A stretch of DNA of 64,000 nucleotides from positions 1 to 64,000 of IMG/VR virus record IMGVR_UViG_3300035208_005087; one strand, 5' to 3'. Under the pieces are notes generated by a model. The model was not told the origin of the DNA. It saw nothing but the letters and a program-made list of their open reading frames with translations, and searched no databases. The translations under genes and the position numbers were made by a program. Source of the DNA: a virus. Lineage: Duplodnaviria > Caudoviricetes. This document shows positions 21,735 through 62,939 of this stretch, in pieces; within the stretch, counting starts at the first letter, position 1; each line of letters starts with the position of its first letter.

Positions 21735-22748
21735 CTAAACTGCTGAAAAGTTAAGAAAGCGTGAACGCACATTTTCTATAGGTGTCATCACGCTGACGTC
21801 CGCAACGGGTACGTCTGCTAAAAAATCTAGCAAAACGGTAAAAGATTCTTTAAAGTTATGTATAATGTTCCCCGGGATAGACCATGTAAGGGGATTCCCA
21901 GTGGCCTCTTTAAAGTTTTCTTCTAACACATATAGGGGGTATACTGTTTTTAACACCCTTGTGACTATACCTCGGATATCCTCAAAGGACTTTAGTATGT
22001 CTGGTATTAACACGATACTTATAAATTTCTTGTCGTCTTTAGAAAGGGGGCGACTGGGGTCCATTCTATAAACAAGCCTACCTACTGCTTTATTCGCCAA
22101 GCTAACTTTTTGTCCTAGGGAGAAAAAGAGCTCCTCCAGTATACTGGAACCATTAGCCCTTAGAGGCTGCAATACCTTTTGTATCTCGGACACGCCCCAC
22201 ATACTATCCACAAATTTAACCCGTAGTAGTGCTTCACTTTCCTCTAACATCCTTTCCGTAGATAAAAGCACTTTTTGTATTTGGTTGCCGTAGTTTATTA
22301 GGGCTTTGCTTATATCTGTAAATTCTTTTGGGACACGAAGTTCTTTTTTTGGGAAAAGATCTGTCTCCTCTGTGTCCTGCCCCTCTTTAAACGCTAGGCA
22401 GTTCTCCCCTAAGGTTAGGGAGAGTTCTCGTACTAATTTATCCTTAAACACTTCCGAAGGGTATTTCCCTTCTGAATCCCAGTCTTTTTTATTAAAGGTT
22501 ATCTTTAACCCTTCATACCAGTGCTCCCGAAAATCCTTTGTTATGATACTTGCTAGCACCGGTATAATTTCATCCACGGGGTTTTCGTATAGATTGGCAT
22601 CTACTACTCTATACCCGTTGATAAGACCTAAGGCAAGGTTCCCGTCCGCAGCTATTGTGTAGGTGTTTCCAGCTAATTCTAGGCTACCTATAAGTTCTGC
22701 TTTTTTACCTGAAGATTTTTTAGTCAAACTGTCCAAGGTGTACCTCAA
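21735..22748 (-). CDS. Hypothetical protein
   Basis: 337-aa ORF co-transcribed with structural genes. Confidence 0.7.
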   Translation of the reverse strand: MRYTLDSLTKKSSGKKAELIGSLELAGNTYTIAADGNLALGLINGYRVVDANLYENPVDEIIPVLASIITKDFREHWYEGLKITFNKKDWDSEGKYPSEVFKDKLVRELSLTLGENCLAFKEGQDTEETDLFPKKELRVPKEFTDISKALINYGNQIQKVLLSTERMLEESEALLRVKFVDSMWGVSEIQKVLQPLRANGSSILEELFFSLGQKVSLANKAVGRLVYRMDPSRPLSKDDKKFISIVLIPDILKSFEDIRGIVTRVLKTVYPLYVLEENFKEATGNPLTWSIPGNIIHNFKESFTVLLDFLADVPVADVSVMTPIENVRSRFLNFSAV

Positions 22749-22753
22749 AAGAC

Positions 22754-23335
22754 TTAGGTTGTTATACGTACCACGATAACGAAAGACATCGCGCTGGTTT
22801 TGTTTATTACAGGGAATGTTCTGTAGTTAACCATCAGCCCTGACCCCGACTCTTCTGTAGCCTCTCCGCCAAAGAGGCCTAGTTCTACGATGGCACCAAC
22901 GGCTTCGGCCTCAGTGAACTCAAAGCTATAGTCCACTACGTTTGTCGGGATTTCCGACACTTCACCCGATGTAGGGTCTATAAACGCCGTGGAGGTTACC
23001 CGCTTTCTTATGAGCTCGGAGGCTAGAGTTGTTTGGTTAGTTGTAGGTGCAGGTGGGTTTTGTAGGTCCCACCCGGGTTCACCGACCCCCACAGCTAAGT
23101 GGGTTATCCCCCCCGAAACTTGATTGGGGTCCTTTAATAAACTAGCAACTAATACCGAGGCAGTGTTTACGATAACATTAGGACTCTCGTAAGAGAAGAT
23201 TTCTACACCTTGCTCGAAAGCTTTTATAAAAATATCCCCTTTCATCTTATTCGTTTTCTCTAAAAAGCGATATAAGAAGTTAAAGGCCATCCCAGCTCTT
23301 TTAACTTTATTTAATGCCTCTCTAAACGTTGCCAT
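22754..23335 (-). CDS. Tail-collar/fibre-attachment-like baseplate protein
   Basis: NVIVN, ITHLAVGVG, TTLASELIRK, EAVGAIVELGLF, FPVINKT pattern of tail-collar fibre-type domains. Confidence 0.7.
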   Translation of the reverse strand: MATFREALNKVKRAGMAFNFLYRFLEKTNKMKGDIFIKAFEQGVEIFSYESPNVIVNTASVLVASLLKDPNQVSGGITHLAVGVGEPGWDLQNPPAPTTNQTTLASELIRKRVTSTAFIDPTSGEVSEIPTNVVDYSFEFTEAEAVGAIVELGLFGGEATEESGSGLMVNYRTFPVINKTSAMSFVIVVRITT

Positions 23336-23406
23336 ACGGTTTTCCTTATTTATTATGTTTTCTATAAAAAGAATACGAGGCTTTAGTACCTCGATATATG
23401 TATGTC

Positions 23407-23428
23407 TTTTGGATTAGAAGATTATCCT
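23407..23428 (-). promoter_or_regulatory. Candidate phage late promoter motif (AGGATAATCTTCTAATCCAAAA)
   Basis: 21/22 identical to 36974-36995; intergenic, upstream of a structural gene. Confidence 0.6.
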
Positions 23429-23506
23429 GTGGGCACTGTGCCTTCCCCTTAGAAGGCGTGCGCAGCAGGGTCCTCTAAATAGGCCAACGCATTGATGAAG
23501 TGAACC

Positions 23507-23625
23507 GTTCAAATGAAACTACAAATAATTACAAATTGAGTAAATGATACTCAGGGTGTTTATTTGCGAACATTTGTTTGAACTCGGCACCGTAAGGTCC
23601 GAGGGCAAACCGAGCCAGTGAGTTC
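23507..23625 (-). ncRNA. Predicted TnpB omegaRNA scaffold overlapping the tnpB 3' end
   Basis: Only ~22 nt between the tnpB stop and the element end; hairpins CTCGG-ACC-TTAC-GGT-G-CCGAG and TGAGTA-N5-TACTCA; internal GTTCAAA can pair with terminal TTTGAAC. 5' boundary is a guess. Confidence 0.55.
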
Positions 23626-24674
23626 ATTGCACCGACTTTGTCGGCATTGTGGTAGCAGCCACAGCTAACACAAATGAACTCTTCCTGTGATACTCGGTTG
23701 GCCTTCTCACTGTGACCACAATCAGGACATGTAATAGAATTGAAAAATGCAGAGACTCTGCGAAGAGACACACCGTGCTCTTCGCAAAGTCTTTCGATTC
23801 TGTCATTGATTCTACCTATGCCCCAACCAGTGAGAACTGATCGCATGTTTTTACTCAAGCGACCGTTGAGTTTGGATTTGCTCTTGATTCTTCTATTGTC
23901 CTCAAGAACTAAAAGTTTTAACACATGAAATGGAACCTGTTTACAGGTTCTATCAATATACTCAATGATCTCTTCTCGACATCTATGCCATGCTTTACTC
24001 AAACGCTTTTTGCGTTTGAGTTTTGCAAGCAACGTCCACATATTAGATCCATAATGATTTCCATCGTCATCAGTGAGAAGGTGCTTCGCACCCGGATCAA
24101 TACCTATCATCGACCCAACTTCTTTCTTTGAAGTTTCCATCTCGAATGTAAATTGAACATATTTCTCCGTCAGGAGGACACTTTTCGCCAATTTTCCCTT
24201 CTGAAACCATTTCAAAAAATGTTTGTGCTTCTTCAAAGGTATAGCGGTTTGTACCGCCCTTTCTCTTGAATCATAACATCGCAGATCAATCAATAAATCA
24301 AATTCATTCAACTCTGGATTGAGGTTGATCTCTACATTCGTCTCCGAAAGCATGATGCGGGACGCATCATGTGTAGGTCGTGAATATGGTTTCTTGAGTG
24401 CATCTGCACTGCGTTTGGTGCCCAACACCAACGCATATGCTTCGGCAAAAGCATTCTTCTTAGCTCTTGCAGTTAACCAACTATCACATTGATTTAGGTT
24501 ATCAGCAAGAAGAAGCTGGGGCTTCTTCTTGCCTTTAATGATATCATTTTCATGGTGGGCAATAGCCCACTCAACAACACGGTGCATCTCCATAAGAAAT
24601 TCACGAACAGAAGCGAGCTTCTGTTCTGTGAGCCACTTACCAAAATGACATTGTGCTGATCTACTAAACTTCAT
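23529..24674 (-). CDS. tnpB: TnpB RNA-guided endonuclease
   Basis: RuvC-I GIDPG, RuvC-II LVLED, zinc ribbon CPDCG...CVSCG, RuvC-III HNADKVGAMN; all three acidic residues present. Confidence 0.92.
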   Translation of the reverse strand: MKFSRSAQCHFGKWLTEQKLASVREFLMEMHRVVEWAIAHHENDIIKGKKKPQLLLADNLNQCDSWLTARAKKNAFAEAYALVLGTKRSADALKKPYSRPTHDASRIMLSETNVEINLNPELNEFDLLIDLRCYDSRERAVQTAIPLKKHKHFLKWFQKGKLAKSVLLTEKYVQFTFEMETSKKEVGSMIGIDPGAKHLLTDDDGNHYGSNMWTLLAKLKRKKRLSKAWHRCREEIIEYIDRTCKQVPFHVLKLLVLEDNRRIKSKSKLNGRLSKNMRSVLTGWGIGRINDRIERLCEEHGVSLRRVSAFFNSITCPDCGHSEKANRVSQEEFICVSCGCYHNADKVGAMNSLARFALGPYGAEFKQMFANKHPEYHLLNL

Positions 24675-24837
24675 TTACGTCCACGTTAAAAGTTGCGTTC
24701 AATGCAACCACTCTAATATAATCACTAAGATTACTAAATCCATATTTAGAGGCATTCGCCTCGATTTTAGTTTTGTCTTCTCCACTCATCCTAAACAGAA
24801 TTGATGAAACTTTATCTTTAGTATATCCTTTTTTCAT
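24664..24837 (-). CDS. Ribbon-helix-helix (CopG/MobC-like) DNA-binding protein, 57 aa
   Basis: Not in the track. MKKGYTKDKVSSILFRMSGEDKTKIEANASKYGFSNLSDYIRVVALNATFNVDVNEV: beta-strand ILFRM plus helix-G-S-helix (NLSDYIR); overlaps the tnpB start. Confidence 0.75.
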   Translation of the reverse strand: MKKGYTKDKVSSILFRMSGEDKTKIEANASKYGFSNLSDYIRVVALNATFNVDVNEV

Positions 24838-24843
24838 ATAAAT

Positions 24844-24872
24844 AATATATACTAATTCAATAACAAAAACAA
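24844..24872 (-). promoter_or_regulatory. Sigma70-type promoter for the RHH-tnpB operon (probably leaderless)
   Basis: TTGTTT-N17-TATATT with the ATG 6 nt downstream and no SD. Confidence 0.55.
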
Positions 24873-24873
24873 T

Positions 24874-24909
24874 AAAAAAATGAAAGCGAGCAATAAATTG
24901 TTCGCTTTC
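24874..24909 (-). terminator. Rho-independent terminator inside the element's left end
   Basis: GAAAGCGAACAAT-TT-ATTGCTCGCTTTC stem (one mismatch) followed by A and T7. Confidence 0.75.
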
Positions 24910-25196
24910 CTATATGTTACTATATTTCATAGGTAATTATTTGTAGTTAGTTGCAGTTATTTGTAATCTCATGCTAACTGCTTTGAACCCTAGTCCCTGA
25001 CTGTACCAGAGACATAGAGGGATTATCTAGCCTGTCGGTGAAGTTATGTACGTAGAACCGGTACTGGTCGTTGTTGTACCGATATATATCTGTTGAAAAC
25101 GCTCCCCTGCCATCCGGAATAGTGTAGCCTCCCCAGCTTCTTCAGGATTGTCATGGTACACAAGAAAATGAGGACCCCCTCCTAAAACAGGCCCTG

Positions 25197-28100
25197 TCAG
25201 GTTTCTCCAGGAACGAGGGGAGGTTCTGGTGGGATCCTAACCAACTCATCAAAAGCCAGCATATCCACAGAGTTGTCGTCCAAAACTTGACGCACTACCA
25301 CCCGTACTAGAGTCATTGTCGTGTCGGAAAGCCCCTGGGTATCCTCATCATTTTTTAGAGCAACTACCGCATGCGGGTAATCCGCAGCACTAACCTCCCC
25401 GACCTCTTCTCTTGTCATTAGTACTAACCCCCGAAAGGTATACTCTACGAAGTCCGCATCCCCTATACTCCAATATAGGTACACCGACCCCTCGGATGTG
25501 TCATCCATGGGGTCCTGGAACTCTTCCTCAATTATACCGGGGTTGATAACTATCAAACTTTGGTCCCAGTTTCTAAACTTTACCATTTTATCGGCGGTGT
25601 CCTCATCCAATAAAAACTGAGCTTCCCCGCCTTCATCGGATATATCGGAAGTAAGAAGCGGAGAGGCCGGTATAGGGAGATTAGGGTTGTTTTTATTACG
25701 TGGGTAGGGGTCTGGATCTGGGTCTGGAAAAGCCGTGACCAGATAGTCCTGCTGCAGAGGAAATCCTGTAGGGAATAGCCCTCCTATAGGTACTACACAC
25801 CTCCTCACCACCGCGTTGAGTAGAACATCTATCTTCTCTACTTTTAAAGGTGTGATGATAAAATCATAGTCACCCTTTTCGGAGAGAAAAGGTCTACTAA
25901 TTACTAGGGACTCCCTGTCTCGTACATTACTAATAGTGTACTCTATCCCATCGATTTGTATTAAAGAACCCTTTTGAATATACCGCCAGTCCACCCCTAC
26001 GCCCGCCTTAAGTAGGGGGCTTCCTTGAATGGCTTTCAGGGACCCTTCTAAGGCATCTCCTGCTATTCTTTCTATGTAGTCCTTATAGTCATTTAGCCGA
26101 ACTTCCCTATTAGGGTAGTACTCTTCTTCTACTTTAAACCCTAATTCAAAACCCCTATCATCACAGAGGGAGGATAGCTGTACGTCGTACCCTTCTGAAG
26201 TTAGTGCTTCTTTTAAGCCCGTGAAAATTTTTGCTCGACCCTTTTCTATATACTTATTGGTAGAGACATATTCAATCAAACCACTAGGGCGGTTCTCTAC
26301 CGTGACCCCCGCAGGCACATTAAACCCAAATGCCTCATCTACACTTGCCCCGTTTTCTACCATATTCCTAAAAGCATAGCTGGCCGTACTGGTAAAGCTC
26401 CTGTAAAAAGGAGGAATCCCCTTCCTTAGTACTAAAAGGGCCTTTAAGTTGTTGAAAAGGTAATCATCATTCAGCTCTATATACTTGTTGGTGTCATATA
26501 GGTACTCTCCACTAAAGTGGACATTATACCTGTTCAGGTTATTCATGCTGCCCGCCCAGCTACCCTTCTTGCCCGGTATCTCAAAGGCATTCAGTACCCC
26601 CGTGTCTTTCGAAGACACTACAGAACTCTGAGTGGAGTCGAAGGCTCTAAACCGGTAACTTATTTCAAGAGGCTTCCTGTATTGGTCTAAGTTTGCATTA
26701 GGGTTAAATTCTTTGCCCTCGGGAACGTCCGGGTTAGTCTCTAGAGTAAAAGGTGACCTGCTCCCGTAAACAGTATTAGTGAAGTGCTGATCACTGTTTG
26801 TTATAAAAGGGTATGTCCTTTTTTTGTCTTGATAATAGTAGACAATTTCTAAAGGCATCCCTAGCGGTGGAGTAAAGGTCAGCTGTACGTGACCTAGAAG
26901 AGGCCTTATAAATTCTATAGCGCCTGTTAGTTCCACCCCGTTCAAGTACACTTTTATATCCTCTACACTCGCTAAGTTACCTTCTTTCCCTAAGAGAGGG
27001 TACTTTGCTATTTGATACGAGGCGGCATTCCCATACAAGGTTTTGTCCACTAACGGAAACGGCCATTGAAACCGGATAACATGCCCCTCTCCACTAATAG
27101 AGGACACCTTGGCCTTTAGATCCAAAAAGGGACCCTCTTCTGAAGGAGGGAGGTACTCTACATATTCTTGAGACACTTGTACGGGGTATGCTCCCTGAGT
27201 GTAGTACTGTATTTCTATTCGTGAACCGGCTGGAGGTATAAAGGATAGGAGAATAACCCCTTCCCAGGGTTCTACGCTTAGTACCGCTCCCTCAACAAGC
27301 TGACCGTCTAAGTACACGACTATGTCTTCCTTGACTGCAACTTCTCCTTCCTTGTTTACAATCGGCACCCCTTCTACAATAATAGGGTCTTCCGTGCTAC
27401 CTATAGTCACTCCTGCTGGGATAGTCACTACCCCGTCCCCCTCTTCGTACCCTTCCAGCCTTGGCACTACTATTTCTAATTTTCGTAGTTTAGGGGTGGG
27501 GTAATCGCAGTTATCCCTCATATCCTCATACATAGGGAGAAGTACATTCCTCTTGTCCTGCGCCATTATGTTTTGACCACAAGCCTTGATAGCTACCCTA
27601 TCCCCATGCTCGTCACGTTCTTTTACCACGTTAGCTTGAAAAACGGGGCTCTCTATTACAAGTGGGTTGAACTGGGCGTACCAGTTATCCTGTATCTCCT
27701 GAGGGGTAGCTCCTTCATGGAAAATAAAAGACCCTTGCGCCTCGCGGCCCAAGAAAAGCACCTGCTGTCCAGGGGCTAGCTCCTCTATTTCCGTTCTGTA
27801 AACCCCATCCACATCTGATGTGTATACGAGCGTCAACGGGTTTATGACAAGTTCTGTCCCGCCCTGTAATGTAATAACCCCTGCGTATGTGTCTACATCA
27901 AGGATTACCCCTTCTACCCACTCATCAGACACTAGCCCTTGAAGGGAGTCTATGTCCCCTATACCTATTTGGTATAAGGCAAAAACTCTGTTAGGGAGGT
28001 CTGTGTATACATAGCCTTCTCTGTTCCCATTGGCATCCTCCGTAAGTACGCCTCCTGGACAACCCCCTATAGCGTATGACTCTTCCCAAATGAGATGAGT

Positions 28101-28730
28101 CTCAAAGATACTTGTGGCCGGTTTAATCAAGTCTATGAAGTAGTACATATCTTGTATATATGTTCCTACATTTGCCAATGTACCGGTGCCCCCTTCTTTC
28201 ATAAAGATCTCAGCTATTAGACGATGTACATCTTTTATTGAAGCTCGTACCCCTTTTTTTCGGGCATCAAGGTACATCTCTTTTACTACTACGGGCACAC
28301 CTAAAATATCCGACAGGGATCCATTTATATTCGATAAGGTGCTCCCGCCAAAATACGCTTTTTTCACTTTCAATAAGAAAGCCCTGTATGTTTCGTCGGT
28401 GTATTGCGCCCCTCCCGCCTTCTCATCAACAAAGAGTAGGTCCCCTAAAATCTGAAAAAGGAATTCTGGGCGGGTTTTTGTGTAGAACTGGTCGTCTGCG
28501 ATAAGCTGCGCAGATTTAAGGGCCTTTTCTCTCTCAGTACAGAAAGCTGAATAGAGCTGAGCTATCTTAGTCGTAGGTACCTCAGGGTAGTTGTCTGCTA
28601 GGTTTCCTAGCATACGTCTTACCGCCTCGGGGACCTTTCCTTGTATTTCTTTTTCAAACTCAGCACCTGTGGGGAACCTAAGTTCCCCCAGTTCTGCTAA
28701 CTTCTTTTTATAGCCGTTATCTTGCGCCAC
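25197..28730 (-). CDS. Baseplate wedge-like protein with repeated Ig-like modules
   Basis: TDETYRAFL...GGST wedge-type motif, DLIKPA; duplicated EDIxVYLxG...GxxxLxFxPPxGxxxEIxYY modules. Confidence 0.7.
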   Translation of the reverse strand: MAQDNGYKKKLAELGELRFPTGAEFEKEIQGKVPEAVRRMLGNLADNYPEVPTTKIAQLYSAFCTEREKALKSAQLIADDQFYTKTRPEFLFQILGDLLFVDEKAGGAQYTDETYRAFLLKVKKAYFGGSTLSNINGSLSDILGVPVVVKEMYLDARKKGVRASIKDVHRLIAEIFMKEGGTGTLANVGTYIQDMYYFIDLIKPATSIFETHLIWEESYAIGGCPGGVLTEDANGNREGYVYTDLPNRVFALYQIGIGDIDSLQGLVSDEWVEGVILDVDTYAGVITLQGGTELVINPLTLVYTSDVDGVYRTEIEELAPGQQVLFLGREAQGSFIFHEGATPQEIQDNWYAQFNPLVIESPVFQANVVKERDEHGDRVAIKACGQNIMAQDKRNVLLPMYEDMRDNCDYPTPKLRKLEIVVPRLEGYEEGDGVVTIPAGVTIGSTEDPIIVEGVPIVNKEGEVAVKEDIVVYLDGQLVEGAVLSVEPWEGVILLSFIPPAGSRIEIQYYTQGAYPVQVSQEYVEYLPPSEEGPFLDLKAKVSSISGEGHVIRFQWPFPLVDKTLYGNAASYQIAKYPLLGKEGNLASVEDIKVYLNGVELTGAIEFIRPLLGHVQLTFTPPLGMPLEIVYYYQDKKRTYPFITNSDQHFTNTVYGSRSPFTLETNPDVPEGKEFNPNANLDQYRKPLEISYRFRAFDSTQSSVVSSKDTGVLNAFEIPGKKGSWAGSMNNLNRYNVHFSGEYLYDTNKYIELNDDYLFNNLKALLVLRKGIPPFYRSFTSTASYAFRNMVENGASVDEAFGFNVPAGVTVENRPSGLIEYVSTNKYIEKGRAKIFTGLKEALTSEGYDVQLSSLCDDRGFELGFKVEEEYYPNREVRLNDYKDYIERIAGDALEGSLKAIQGSPLLKAGVGVDWRYIQKGSLIQIDGIEYTISNVRDRESLVISRPFLSEKGDYDFIITPLKVEKIDVLLNAVVRRCVVPIGGLFPTGFPLQQDYLVTAFPDPDPDPYPRNKNNPNLPIPASPLLTSDISDEGGEAQFLLDEDTADKMVKFRNWDQSLIVINPGIIEEEFQDPMDDTSEGSVYLYWSIGDADFVEYTFRGLVLMTREEVGEVSAADYPHAVVALKNDEDTQGLSDTTMTLVRVVVRQVLDDNSVDMLAFDELVRIPPEPPLVPGET

Positions 28731-36973: not shown

Positions 36974-36995
36974 TTTTGGATTAGGAGATTATCCT
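36974..36995 (-). promoter_or_regulatory. Candidate phage late promoter motif (AGGATAATCTCCTAATCCAAAA)
   Basis: 21/22 identical to 23407-23428; upstream of the baseplate wedge operon. Confidence 0.6.
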
Positions 36996-62923: not shown

Positions 62924-62939
62924 AATTAGAAGATTATCC
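62924..62939 (-). promoter_or_regulatory. Candidate phage late promoter motif (GGATAATCTTCTAATT)
   Basis: 15-nt identity with the 23411 copy; intergenic, upstream of the sheath gene. Confidence 0.6.

Follow-up and report, generated by a model that had tools for sequence, protein, structure and literature searches.

A probable non-autonomous IS607-type transposon with an overlapping ribbon-helix-helix and tnpB gene pair in a very large phage

How does a transposon that encodes an RNA-guided nuclease and no transposase persist in a phage genome, and what is the small ribbon-helix-helix (RHH) gene that sits in the place of its tnpA? Both questions are raised by an element of ~1.48 kb carried by IMG/VR virus record IMGVR_UViG_3300035208_005087, of which the first 64 kb were analyzed here as one stretch (hereafter the window). 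The whole record extends over 128.5 kb and is estimated to be 28% complete, which implies a very large phage. The locus lies on the minus strand, flanked by a gene for a 1177-aa structural protein (28730..25197) and a gene for a 193-aa baseplate-like protein (23335..22754). Two minus-strand open reading frames (ORFs) of 57 and 381 aa occupy the interval; they encode an RHH protein and a TnpB, and the ATG of tnpB overlaps the last 11 nt of the RHH gene. We argue below that this feature is probably a non-autonomous member of an IS607-type transposon family circulating in very large phages. From left end (LE) to right end (RE), the proposed layout comprises the LE itself (GG core, GTTCAAA and TACAAATAA repeats), an outward-insulating hairpin with a T-run, a putative near-leaderless promoter, the RHH gene, a translationally coupled tnpB, a predicted omegaRNA over the 3' end of tnpB and the RE (TTTGAAC and GG). 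All coordinates are collected in Table 1.

The first clue to the ends was a 16-nt perfect inverted repeat (23517-23532 / 24933-24948). On the left, an independent copy of 90% nucleotide identity (L039; related loci bear L numbers and W designates the window copy) aligns from GGGTTCAA with an unrelated flank ahead of it, and an element-free allele described below, L042, diverges at the LE tip. On the right, similarity between the copies W, L034, L005, L033, L032, L006, L008, L009, L016 and L017 stops at TTTGAACGG(T), with TGAACGG(T) closing it in 10 relatives, and the downstream flank is different in every copy. The junctions of the window copy read ACTA/GG/GTTCAAA and TTTGAAC/GG/TTCAC, with a terminal inverted repeat of 7 bp, and the same tips are present in at least 10 relatives. 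The LE tip TA/GGGTT is common to L008, L009, L032 and the autonomous elements L014, L064, L067, L070 and L077, and the tips of autonomous relatives match at both sides (TA/GGGTT and GGAACGG/T). These ends agree within 1-2 nt with the limits 23507-24989 given in an initial annotation of the window. IS607 elements insert at GG; the window element displays a GG core at both ends, short terminal and subterminal repeats and no visible target duplication. The subterminal motif is swapped at both ends together, TACAAATAA in the window copy being replaced by TGTATGCAA in L032 and L047, as would be expected of recombinase binding sites, and the LE subterminal repeats are probable binding sites for a cognate IS607 TnpA.

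The corresponding transposase is found in sister elements. Those sharing the same TnpB family (L015, L019, L070 and others) encode a TnpA with MerR and Resolvase domains (Pfam), and the sister TnpA, known from metagenome loci, reaches 184 bits on the NCBIfam IS607 transposase model, for a cut-off of 110. The MerR-type helix-turn-helix serine recombinase expected of IS607 is missing from the window element, and no resolvase or other serine recombinase was found in the 128-kb record, itself 28% complete, in agreement with the lack of transposase noted initially. Since sister elements possess an IS607 transposase and the window copy has none, the latter is probably a non-autonomous derivative. 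More distant members of the family (~50-70% TnpB identity) exist in 2-6 copies within single phage contigs, where the tnpB-only copies are clean tnpA deletions of the tnpA-bearing copy. One 152-kb phage contig holds six copies, one with a 185-aa resolvase-type gene overlapping the start of tnpB and the others identical to it save for a clean deletion of that gene. A blastn search of the element against 50,697 phage records returned no match, and tblastn retrieved distant TnpBs only, at 25-40% identity.

The RHH-tnpB unit itself occupies at least three different loci. Units of 83-90% nucleotide identity were found elsewhere, in L035-37, where the unit stands in an unrelated neighborhood on the strand opposite to its neighbors, and in L039, where it follows a 445-aa gene; a search for such pairs at different loci had been suggested initially, and they are observed. 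The RHH gene, located within the transposon boundaries between LE (24990) and tnpB, moves with the unit to these other loci. In two metagenomes the read depth of tnpB is several-fold above that of the flanks, a ratio compatible with numerous related copies in the two communities. The presence of the unit at several sites, the element-free allele in L042 and L043 and the multi-copy state of distant relatives are those of a mobile element. A reciprocal search for empty sites found no counterpart of the L039 and L035 flanks in the 128-kb record. The right flank of L005, which resembled a tRNA by eye, was discarded as such, ARAGORN detecting none.

The nuclease encoded by the element looks active. 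The 381-aa protein matches the Cas12f1-like TNB domain (Pfam, 2e-13) and a PHROG transposase (1e-22), and 90 homologues of 41-91% identity were identified, many of them from contigs 100-365 kb long. Across 40 aligned homologues, D193, E258 and D345 are invariant, so that all three RuvC residues are indeed retained, and so are the zinc-finger cysteines C316/C319/C335/C338. D193 and D345 line up with the RuvC-I (G-I/V-D-x-G) and RuvC-III (N-A-D) motifs of solved Cas12f proteins, whose aspartates at these positions are known to be catalytic. The AlphaFold2 (AF2) model of TnpB has a predicted local distance difference test (pLDDT) value of 91, and its top Foldseek matches, AsCas12f, OsCas12f, ISFba1 TnpB and ISDra2 TnpB, extend over the full length with E-values of 1e-12 to 1e-16. 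The ratio of non-synonymous to synonymous substitution rates (dN/dS) of tnpB is ~0.15, denoting purifying selection.

The ~200 nt that end at the RE fold far better than shuffled sequences (z -5.6). The consensus structure comprises 45 pairs over ten relatives, with 92% of cells paired against 34-41% when the partners are slid, and compensatory changes affect 18 pairs compared to 3-6 in the slid controls, despite the coding region. The scaffold is conserved across copies and followed by a variable flank. This ~200-nt structure is consistent with an omegaRNA, predicted as such because of its fold and strong covariation. An Rfam scan of positions 22500-26000 gave chance-level matches only, with no RAGATH-18 and no other family. 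The position rule of TnpB places the predicted guide in the RE flank, starting with TTCACTTCATCAATGCGTTG, and a sequence identical to the guide is found in the element-free allele L042 directly after GGGTGGG; the left flank of the window element ends with CTAGG. The reported transposon-adjacent motifs (TAMs) of IS607 TnpBs, AGGAG and GAGGG, are G-rich, and a TAM of the T(A/G)GG type may accordingly be proposed beside the LE and in the element-free allele.

The insertion site could be examined in closely related phages. Among contigs of public runs mapped on the region, one from lake water connects 23506 with 24987 through 99 bases of a different sequence. This element-free contig, L042, and L043 from a second run were reached through the cluster of the 193-aa protein; they derive from a phage ~97% identical to the window phage and devoid of the element, which establishes a presence/absence polymorphism. 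In L042 the structural gene is longer by ~165 residues than in the window and ends 113 bp ahead of the following gene. Three differences separate the window from L042: a 109-bp deletion at ~25201 that creates the stop of the window gene, a 4-bp indel near 25081 and the element replacing 99 coding bases. Because L042 is coding in frame across the site, the element lies in the decayed 3' coding end of the structural gene and not in a spacer; the initial annotation, which placed it in the late structural operon, is amended to this extent. The bases that gave way to the element encode part of a C-terminal extension that would be dispensable to the structural protein. The ~165-aa extension is intact in L042 and L043 (L042:2570-3070), absent in the more distant L030 and L031, and has no Pfam match. 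A larger block of 1.8 kb flanked by AGGAT was considered as the insertion and rejected, the additional flanks being the decayed C-terminal extension.

These data bear on the idea, left open by the initial annotation, that the unit has been domesticated. It would then be immobile, the phage turning an RHH-controlled TnpB, as weapon or as regulator, on the DNA of hosts or competitors, and its ends would be relics. The absence of a transposase from the record, the single copy of the element in its 128 kb and the earlier exaptation of phage TnpB relatives (TldR) speak for such a fate. However, the catalytic triad and the termini are both intact, the latter being typical of the family, near-identical units exist elsewhere, the allele is absent from a 97% identical phage and the guide corresponds to the adjacent flank, as in selfish elements. 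Nothing in the locus points to domestication, transposon ends being present and related elements multi-copy, and we regard this explanation as quite unlikely.

The small gene ahead of tnpB is a genuine gene. Its product matches the NikA-like RHH family of Pfam (PF21983, 29.6 bits for a cut-off of 27), as do the RHH proteins of L006 and L034, and the monomer model consists of two helices. Foldseek with this monomer model yielded nothing significant, the weak list containing mostly RHH proteins, and phmmer found no match among PDB sequences. Purifying selection is evident from dN/dS values of 0.048 against L035, at a saturated dS of ~1.1, and 0.165 against L034. Among ~60 loci with enough upstream sequence, an RHH gene precedes tnpB in 14, an IS607 TnpA in ~18 and neither in ~30. 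That the ORF could be a decayed tnpA fragment or a chance ORF has a negligible probability: it does occupy the place held by tnpA in L015 and L019, but its fold is that of an RHH and not of a MerR-resolvase, its dN/dS is 0.048 at saturated dS and it is conserved at 14 loci. We therefore retain the initial view of an RHH gene in the place of tnpA, under selection (dN/dS 0.05-0.2) and unlike the MerR-resolvase TnpA of sister elements in fold, and consider a decayed tnpA ruled out.

Conservation of the RHH gene next to homologous tnpB genes is more nuanced. In a quick TnpB tree, all RHH-bearing rows fall into one 22-row clade, and in the nine-row subclade of the window the gene is kept in seven rows, a pseudogene in one and lost in one. 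In L005, which is not among the 14 loci, an RHH pseudogene with an internal deletion stands ahead of tnpB. The gene is thus maintained in the clade of the window, while being restricted to it and having been lost within it. RHH alleles are mosaic, since W and L034 share 91% identity in TnpB and 45% in RHH. Contigs of runs X1 and X2, about twice as deep as the flanks, pass directly from 24678 to 24835 and leave out the RHH ORF; they may stem, in these communities, from a copy devoid of RHH or from one whose RHH allele is divergent.

Two further roles can be envisaged for the RHH protein. As a transposition accessory factor of the NikA/MobC type, or a directionality factor, it would bind the ends and help or restrain a TnpA acting in trans. 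Its best Pfam and NCBIfam matches are indeed the mobilization accessory proteins NikA and MbpA, and its gene is located just inside the LE beside the repeat motifs. However, none of the ~18 TnpA-bearing relatives possesses an RHH gene, and the type of RHH allele does not covary with the type of subterminal repeat: the RHHs of L048 and L085 are alike and their repeats differ, whereas those of W and L034 differ and their repeats are alike. This mismatch argues against binding of the RHH protein to the subterminal repeats, and an accessory role appears improbable. In the second alternative, RHH and TnpB would form a toxin-antitoxin-like or inhibitor pair, the RHH protein binding TnpB or its ribonucleoprotein and blocking cleavage, and the whole acting as a phage addiction or exclusion module. 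A hypothesis of this kind has been published for archaeal RHH/MazE-TnpB pairs, the overlapping co-directional genes recall type II toxin-antitoxin operons and the distribution is patchy. The archaeal clade is non-mobile, however, with a RuvC-III D-to-H replacement, where the window element has D345 and intact ends, and tnpB is intact without RHH in the close relatives L005 and L032, which is unexpected for a needed antitoxin. A complex prediction for TnpB and RHH, run with no control pairs alongside, scored 0.00, which is no verdict either way. We attach a low probability to this pairing as well.

A putative expression cassette precedes the gene pair. The hairpin (24909..24882), followed by a T-run, has a folding energy of -12.2 kcal/mol (z -3.9). 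L039 and L034 retain it, at -14.0 and -16.2 respectively and, in L034, with a single compensatory G-C to C-G change, whereas it has degenerated in L035. When W, L039, L035, L034 and L038 are aligned, the TATATT -10 box does not vary. L047, L052 and L063 possess another promoter type, unrelated to the first and equal to it in -10-to-ATG spacing (6-8 nt), and this recurrence supports a leaderless layout. On the minus strand, the RHH ORF overlapping the start of tnpB, preceded by a hairpin with T-run and a -10 box, is as initially described. The terminator and sigma70-type leaderless promoter attributed to it stand as regards the hairpin and T-run, the -10 box, the 6 nt to the ATG and the missing Shine-Dalgarno sequence, with the reservation that the -35 box is weak.

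From these parts, a way of life can be proposed for a non-autonomous IS607-type element. TnpB and the omegaRNA would cut the element-free allele at the flank-derived target beside a G-rich T(A/G)GG TAM, and repair from an element-bearing genome would restore or spread the element, which in a phage would amount to homing during co-infection. Transposition to a new site would need the MerR-resolvase TnpA, provided in trans by an autonomous relative and acting on the conserved termini. Homing and a transposase in trans were both suggested in the initial annotation; the intact family-typical ends, the different sites and the element-free allele with its intact target fit them. We further infer autorepression, in which an RHH dimer would bind the promoter region of the LE and repress transcription of its own gene and of tnpB, so that the nuclease level would stay low; this is proposed because the Arc protein of IS605 elements is reported to act in this manner. 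The hairpin would protect the cassette against transcripts reading through from the late gene upstream. More tentatively, a megaphage clade lacking the transposase might persist in the form of an RNA-guided homing cassette of two genes, RHH and TnpB with its omegaRNA, and spread between co-infecting phages by cleavage of the element-free allele, its fast-swapping RHH alleles being element-specific switches of expression or immunity; we see this extension as possible, though rather doubtful. If true, phage homing endonuclease genes would have here an RNA-guided equivalent, for which a filled and an empty allele, suited to a test, exist in nature.

Several observations weigh against this interpretation. 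TnpB is divergent and falls below the NCBIfam cut-offs for guided_TnpB and IS607_TnpB (24 bits on the latter). No TnpA that could mobilize the element in trans was found in the 128-kb record. The allele without the element differs from the window by 99 bp and is not a clean empty site, so that a simple insertion at GG needs an extra deletion step; an exact search of viral contigs for a clean empty site (left flank, GG and right flank) found none. The RHH gene has been lost or pseudogenized beside an intact tnpB in L032 and L005, which makes it dispensable. The promoter escaped a consensus scan because its -35 box is weak. No conserved operator was found: one candidate, formed by TTAGTATAT/ATATACTAA as an inverted repeat about the start codon, was rejected because relatives with other RHH alleles do not keep it. 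In RNA run X18, a single 245-nt contig of low depth lies inside tnpB, which is no proof of expression.

The element can be situated among known systems. With IS607 of Helicobacter pylori and the ISFba1-type IS607 TnpB elements it shares the GG ends, the short terminal and subterminal repeats, the lack of visible target duplication, the 3' position of tnpB, the location of the guide RNA at the right end and, beside the LE, a flank rich in G, and its sister elements encode the MerR-resolvase IS607 transposase. It departs from them by the absence of tnpA and of RAGATH-18 RNA, by its residence in very large phages and by a TnpB far from the characterized IS607 TnpBs, that of ISFba1 having been found mainly by fold. 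Like the tnpB-only IS1341-type elements, it has no transposase and keeps tnpB, omegaRNA and ends, a state in which persistence is presumed to proceed via trans-mobilization and TnpB-driven retention; unlike them, it carries an additional regulatory gene and an insulating hairpin. The homing endonuclease genes of T4-like phages are functional analogues only: both are selfish phage nucleases directed at the element-free allele of a related phage, with spread expected upon co-infection, but recognition by the window element would be RNA-guided, its ends are in addition of the recombinase type, and its homing is a proposal.

TnpB genes in phages are well known, and the RHH association has precedents. 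A 2023 report (bioRxiv 10.1101/2023.11.20.567912) described Arc-like RHH ORFs inside IS605/IS607 IStrons and further TnpB elements, and Arc binds and represses IS605 promoters according to a 2026 preprint (10.64898/2026.09.24.754181). These elements resemble the present one by a small RHH gene inside the transposon beside the promoter, often shorter than 60 aa and missed by annotation, for which repression of tnpB was proposed or shown. Their arc gene, in contrast, is usually accompanied by tnpA and often divergent from tnpB across a bidirectional promoter, whereas the window RHH gene is co-directional, overlaps the start of tnpB and is confined to units without tnpA in an IS607-type clade borne by phages, a distinction drawn from layout. 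In archaea, an RHH/MazE-TnpB pair whose active site is rearranged has been interpreted as a toxin-antitoxin module (PNAS 2023, PMC10691335); there too a small RHH gene directly precedes tnpB, but these pairs are non-mobile with RuvC-III D changed to H, and the window element has a canonical triad and mobile ends. With Arc-like RHH in TnpB transposons published, repression demonstrated in a preprint and the archaeal pairing known, the proposal of an undescribed system cannot be upheld. The locus clearly exemplifies a kind of element described only recently and is no new class of system; what sets it apart is a co-directional RHH-tnpB pair with overlapping genes, borne by tnpA-less IS607-type units that form a clade in megaphages. 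TnpB elements are the ancestors of Cas12 and are in use as compact genome editors, and their regulation and persistence without a transposase are only now being worked out. The value of the locus resides in its defined ends, a guide RNA supported by covariation, a selected repressor-type gene and a related phage with an uninterrupted target, which make RNA-guided phage-to-phage homing and RHH control of TnpB testable with synthetic constructs.

Table 1. Coordinates of the element, its flanks and related features (positions without a locus prefix are those of the window).
Feature	Position	Strand	Remarks
LE tip	24982..24990	-	GG core 24990-24989, then terminal inverted repeat GTTCAAA 24988..24982
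LE subterminal repeats	24933..24966	-	two TACAAATAA-type motifs; 16-nt perfect inverted repeat with right end
Terminator-like hairpin and T-run	24872..24909	-	faces incoming transcription
Promoter-like region	24838..24872	-	TTGTTT 24872..24867, 17 nt, TATATT 24849..24844, 6 nt, ATG; no Shine-Dalgarno
RHH (Arc/NikA-like) gene, 57 aa	24664..24837	-	Pfam PF21983 match
tnpB, 381 aa	23529..24674	-	RuvC D193/E258/D345; CxxC...CxxC zinc finger
Predicted omegaRNA scaffold	23507..23703	-	covers last ~58 codons of tnpB, reaches right end
RE	23505..23532	-	inverted subterminal repeat 23532..23517, TTTGAAC 23513..23507, GG core 23506-23505
Predicted guide, RE flank TTCACTTCATCAATGCGTTG...	23485..23504	-	inferred from TnpB position rule
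Left flank, dead remnant of C-terminal extension of 1177-aa gene	24991..25201	-	in frame in L042
Extension remnants in window	24991-25201 and 23426-23504		
Phage motif ATAATCTTCTAAT, candidate late promoter	23413..23425	-	ahead of 193-aa gene; not part of element
ATAATCT(T/C)CTAAT copies	23413-23425, 36980-36992, 62925-62937	-	
ATAATCT(T/C)CTAAT copies, elsewhere	G000:C1:125396-125421; L030:3404-3420; L031:3443-3460		
Solo right-end relics	L003:3975-4114, L004 (same), L023, L026, L028		
Small ORF between LE and tnpA	L064:333-623, L067:540-719, L070:555-725		remnants L008:2822-2932, L009
Pre-tnpB slot ORFs	L064:1235-1504, L069:885-1142, L070:1289-1504, L077:1148-1504, L080:736-1179, L091:546-764, L014:2465-3001		

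A few additional features were encountered in the course of this analysis. The same phage record encodes, outside the window, a second TnpB of 411 aa (~105720-106955; L041:1342-2577, minus strand), which is canonical, unrelated to that of the element and matched by the Pfam families HTH_OrfB_IS605, OrfB_IS605 and TNB. Solo right-end relics, made of the last ~115 bp of tnpB and the RE and devoid of the 5' half of the omegaRNA structure, are present in other viral contigs. The candidate late-promoter motif is found 80 bp downstream of the RE, and the next operon may therefore have its own promoter; copies of ATAATCT(T/C)CTAAT stand at gene boundaries ahead of structural genes. Autonomous relatives contain between LE and tnpA a conserved small ORF of 56-96 aa (start MK..MKVVRVT.TEFEL.DGR) belonging to no Pfam family. 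Directly ahead of tnpB, with a stop overlapping the tnpB start, each autonomous element harbors a different unrelated ORF of 59-178 aa, and the RHH gene may be one of many passengers of this slot.

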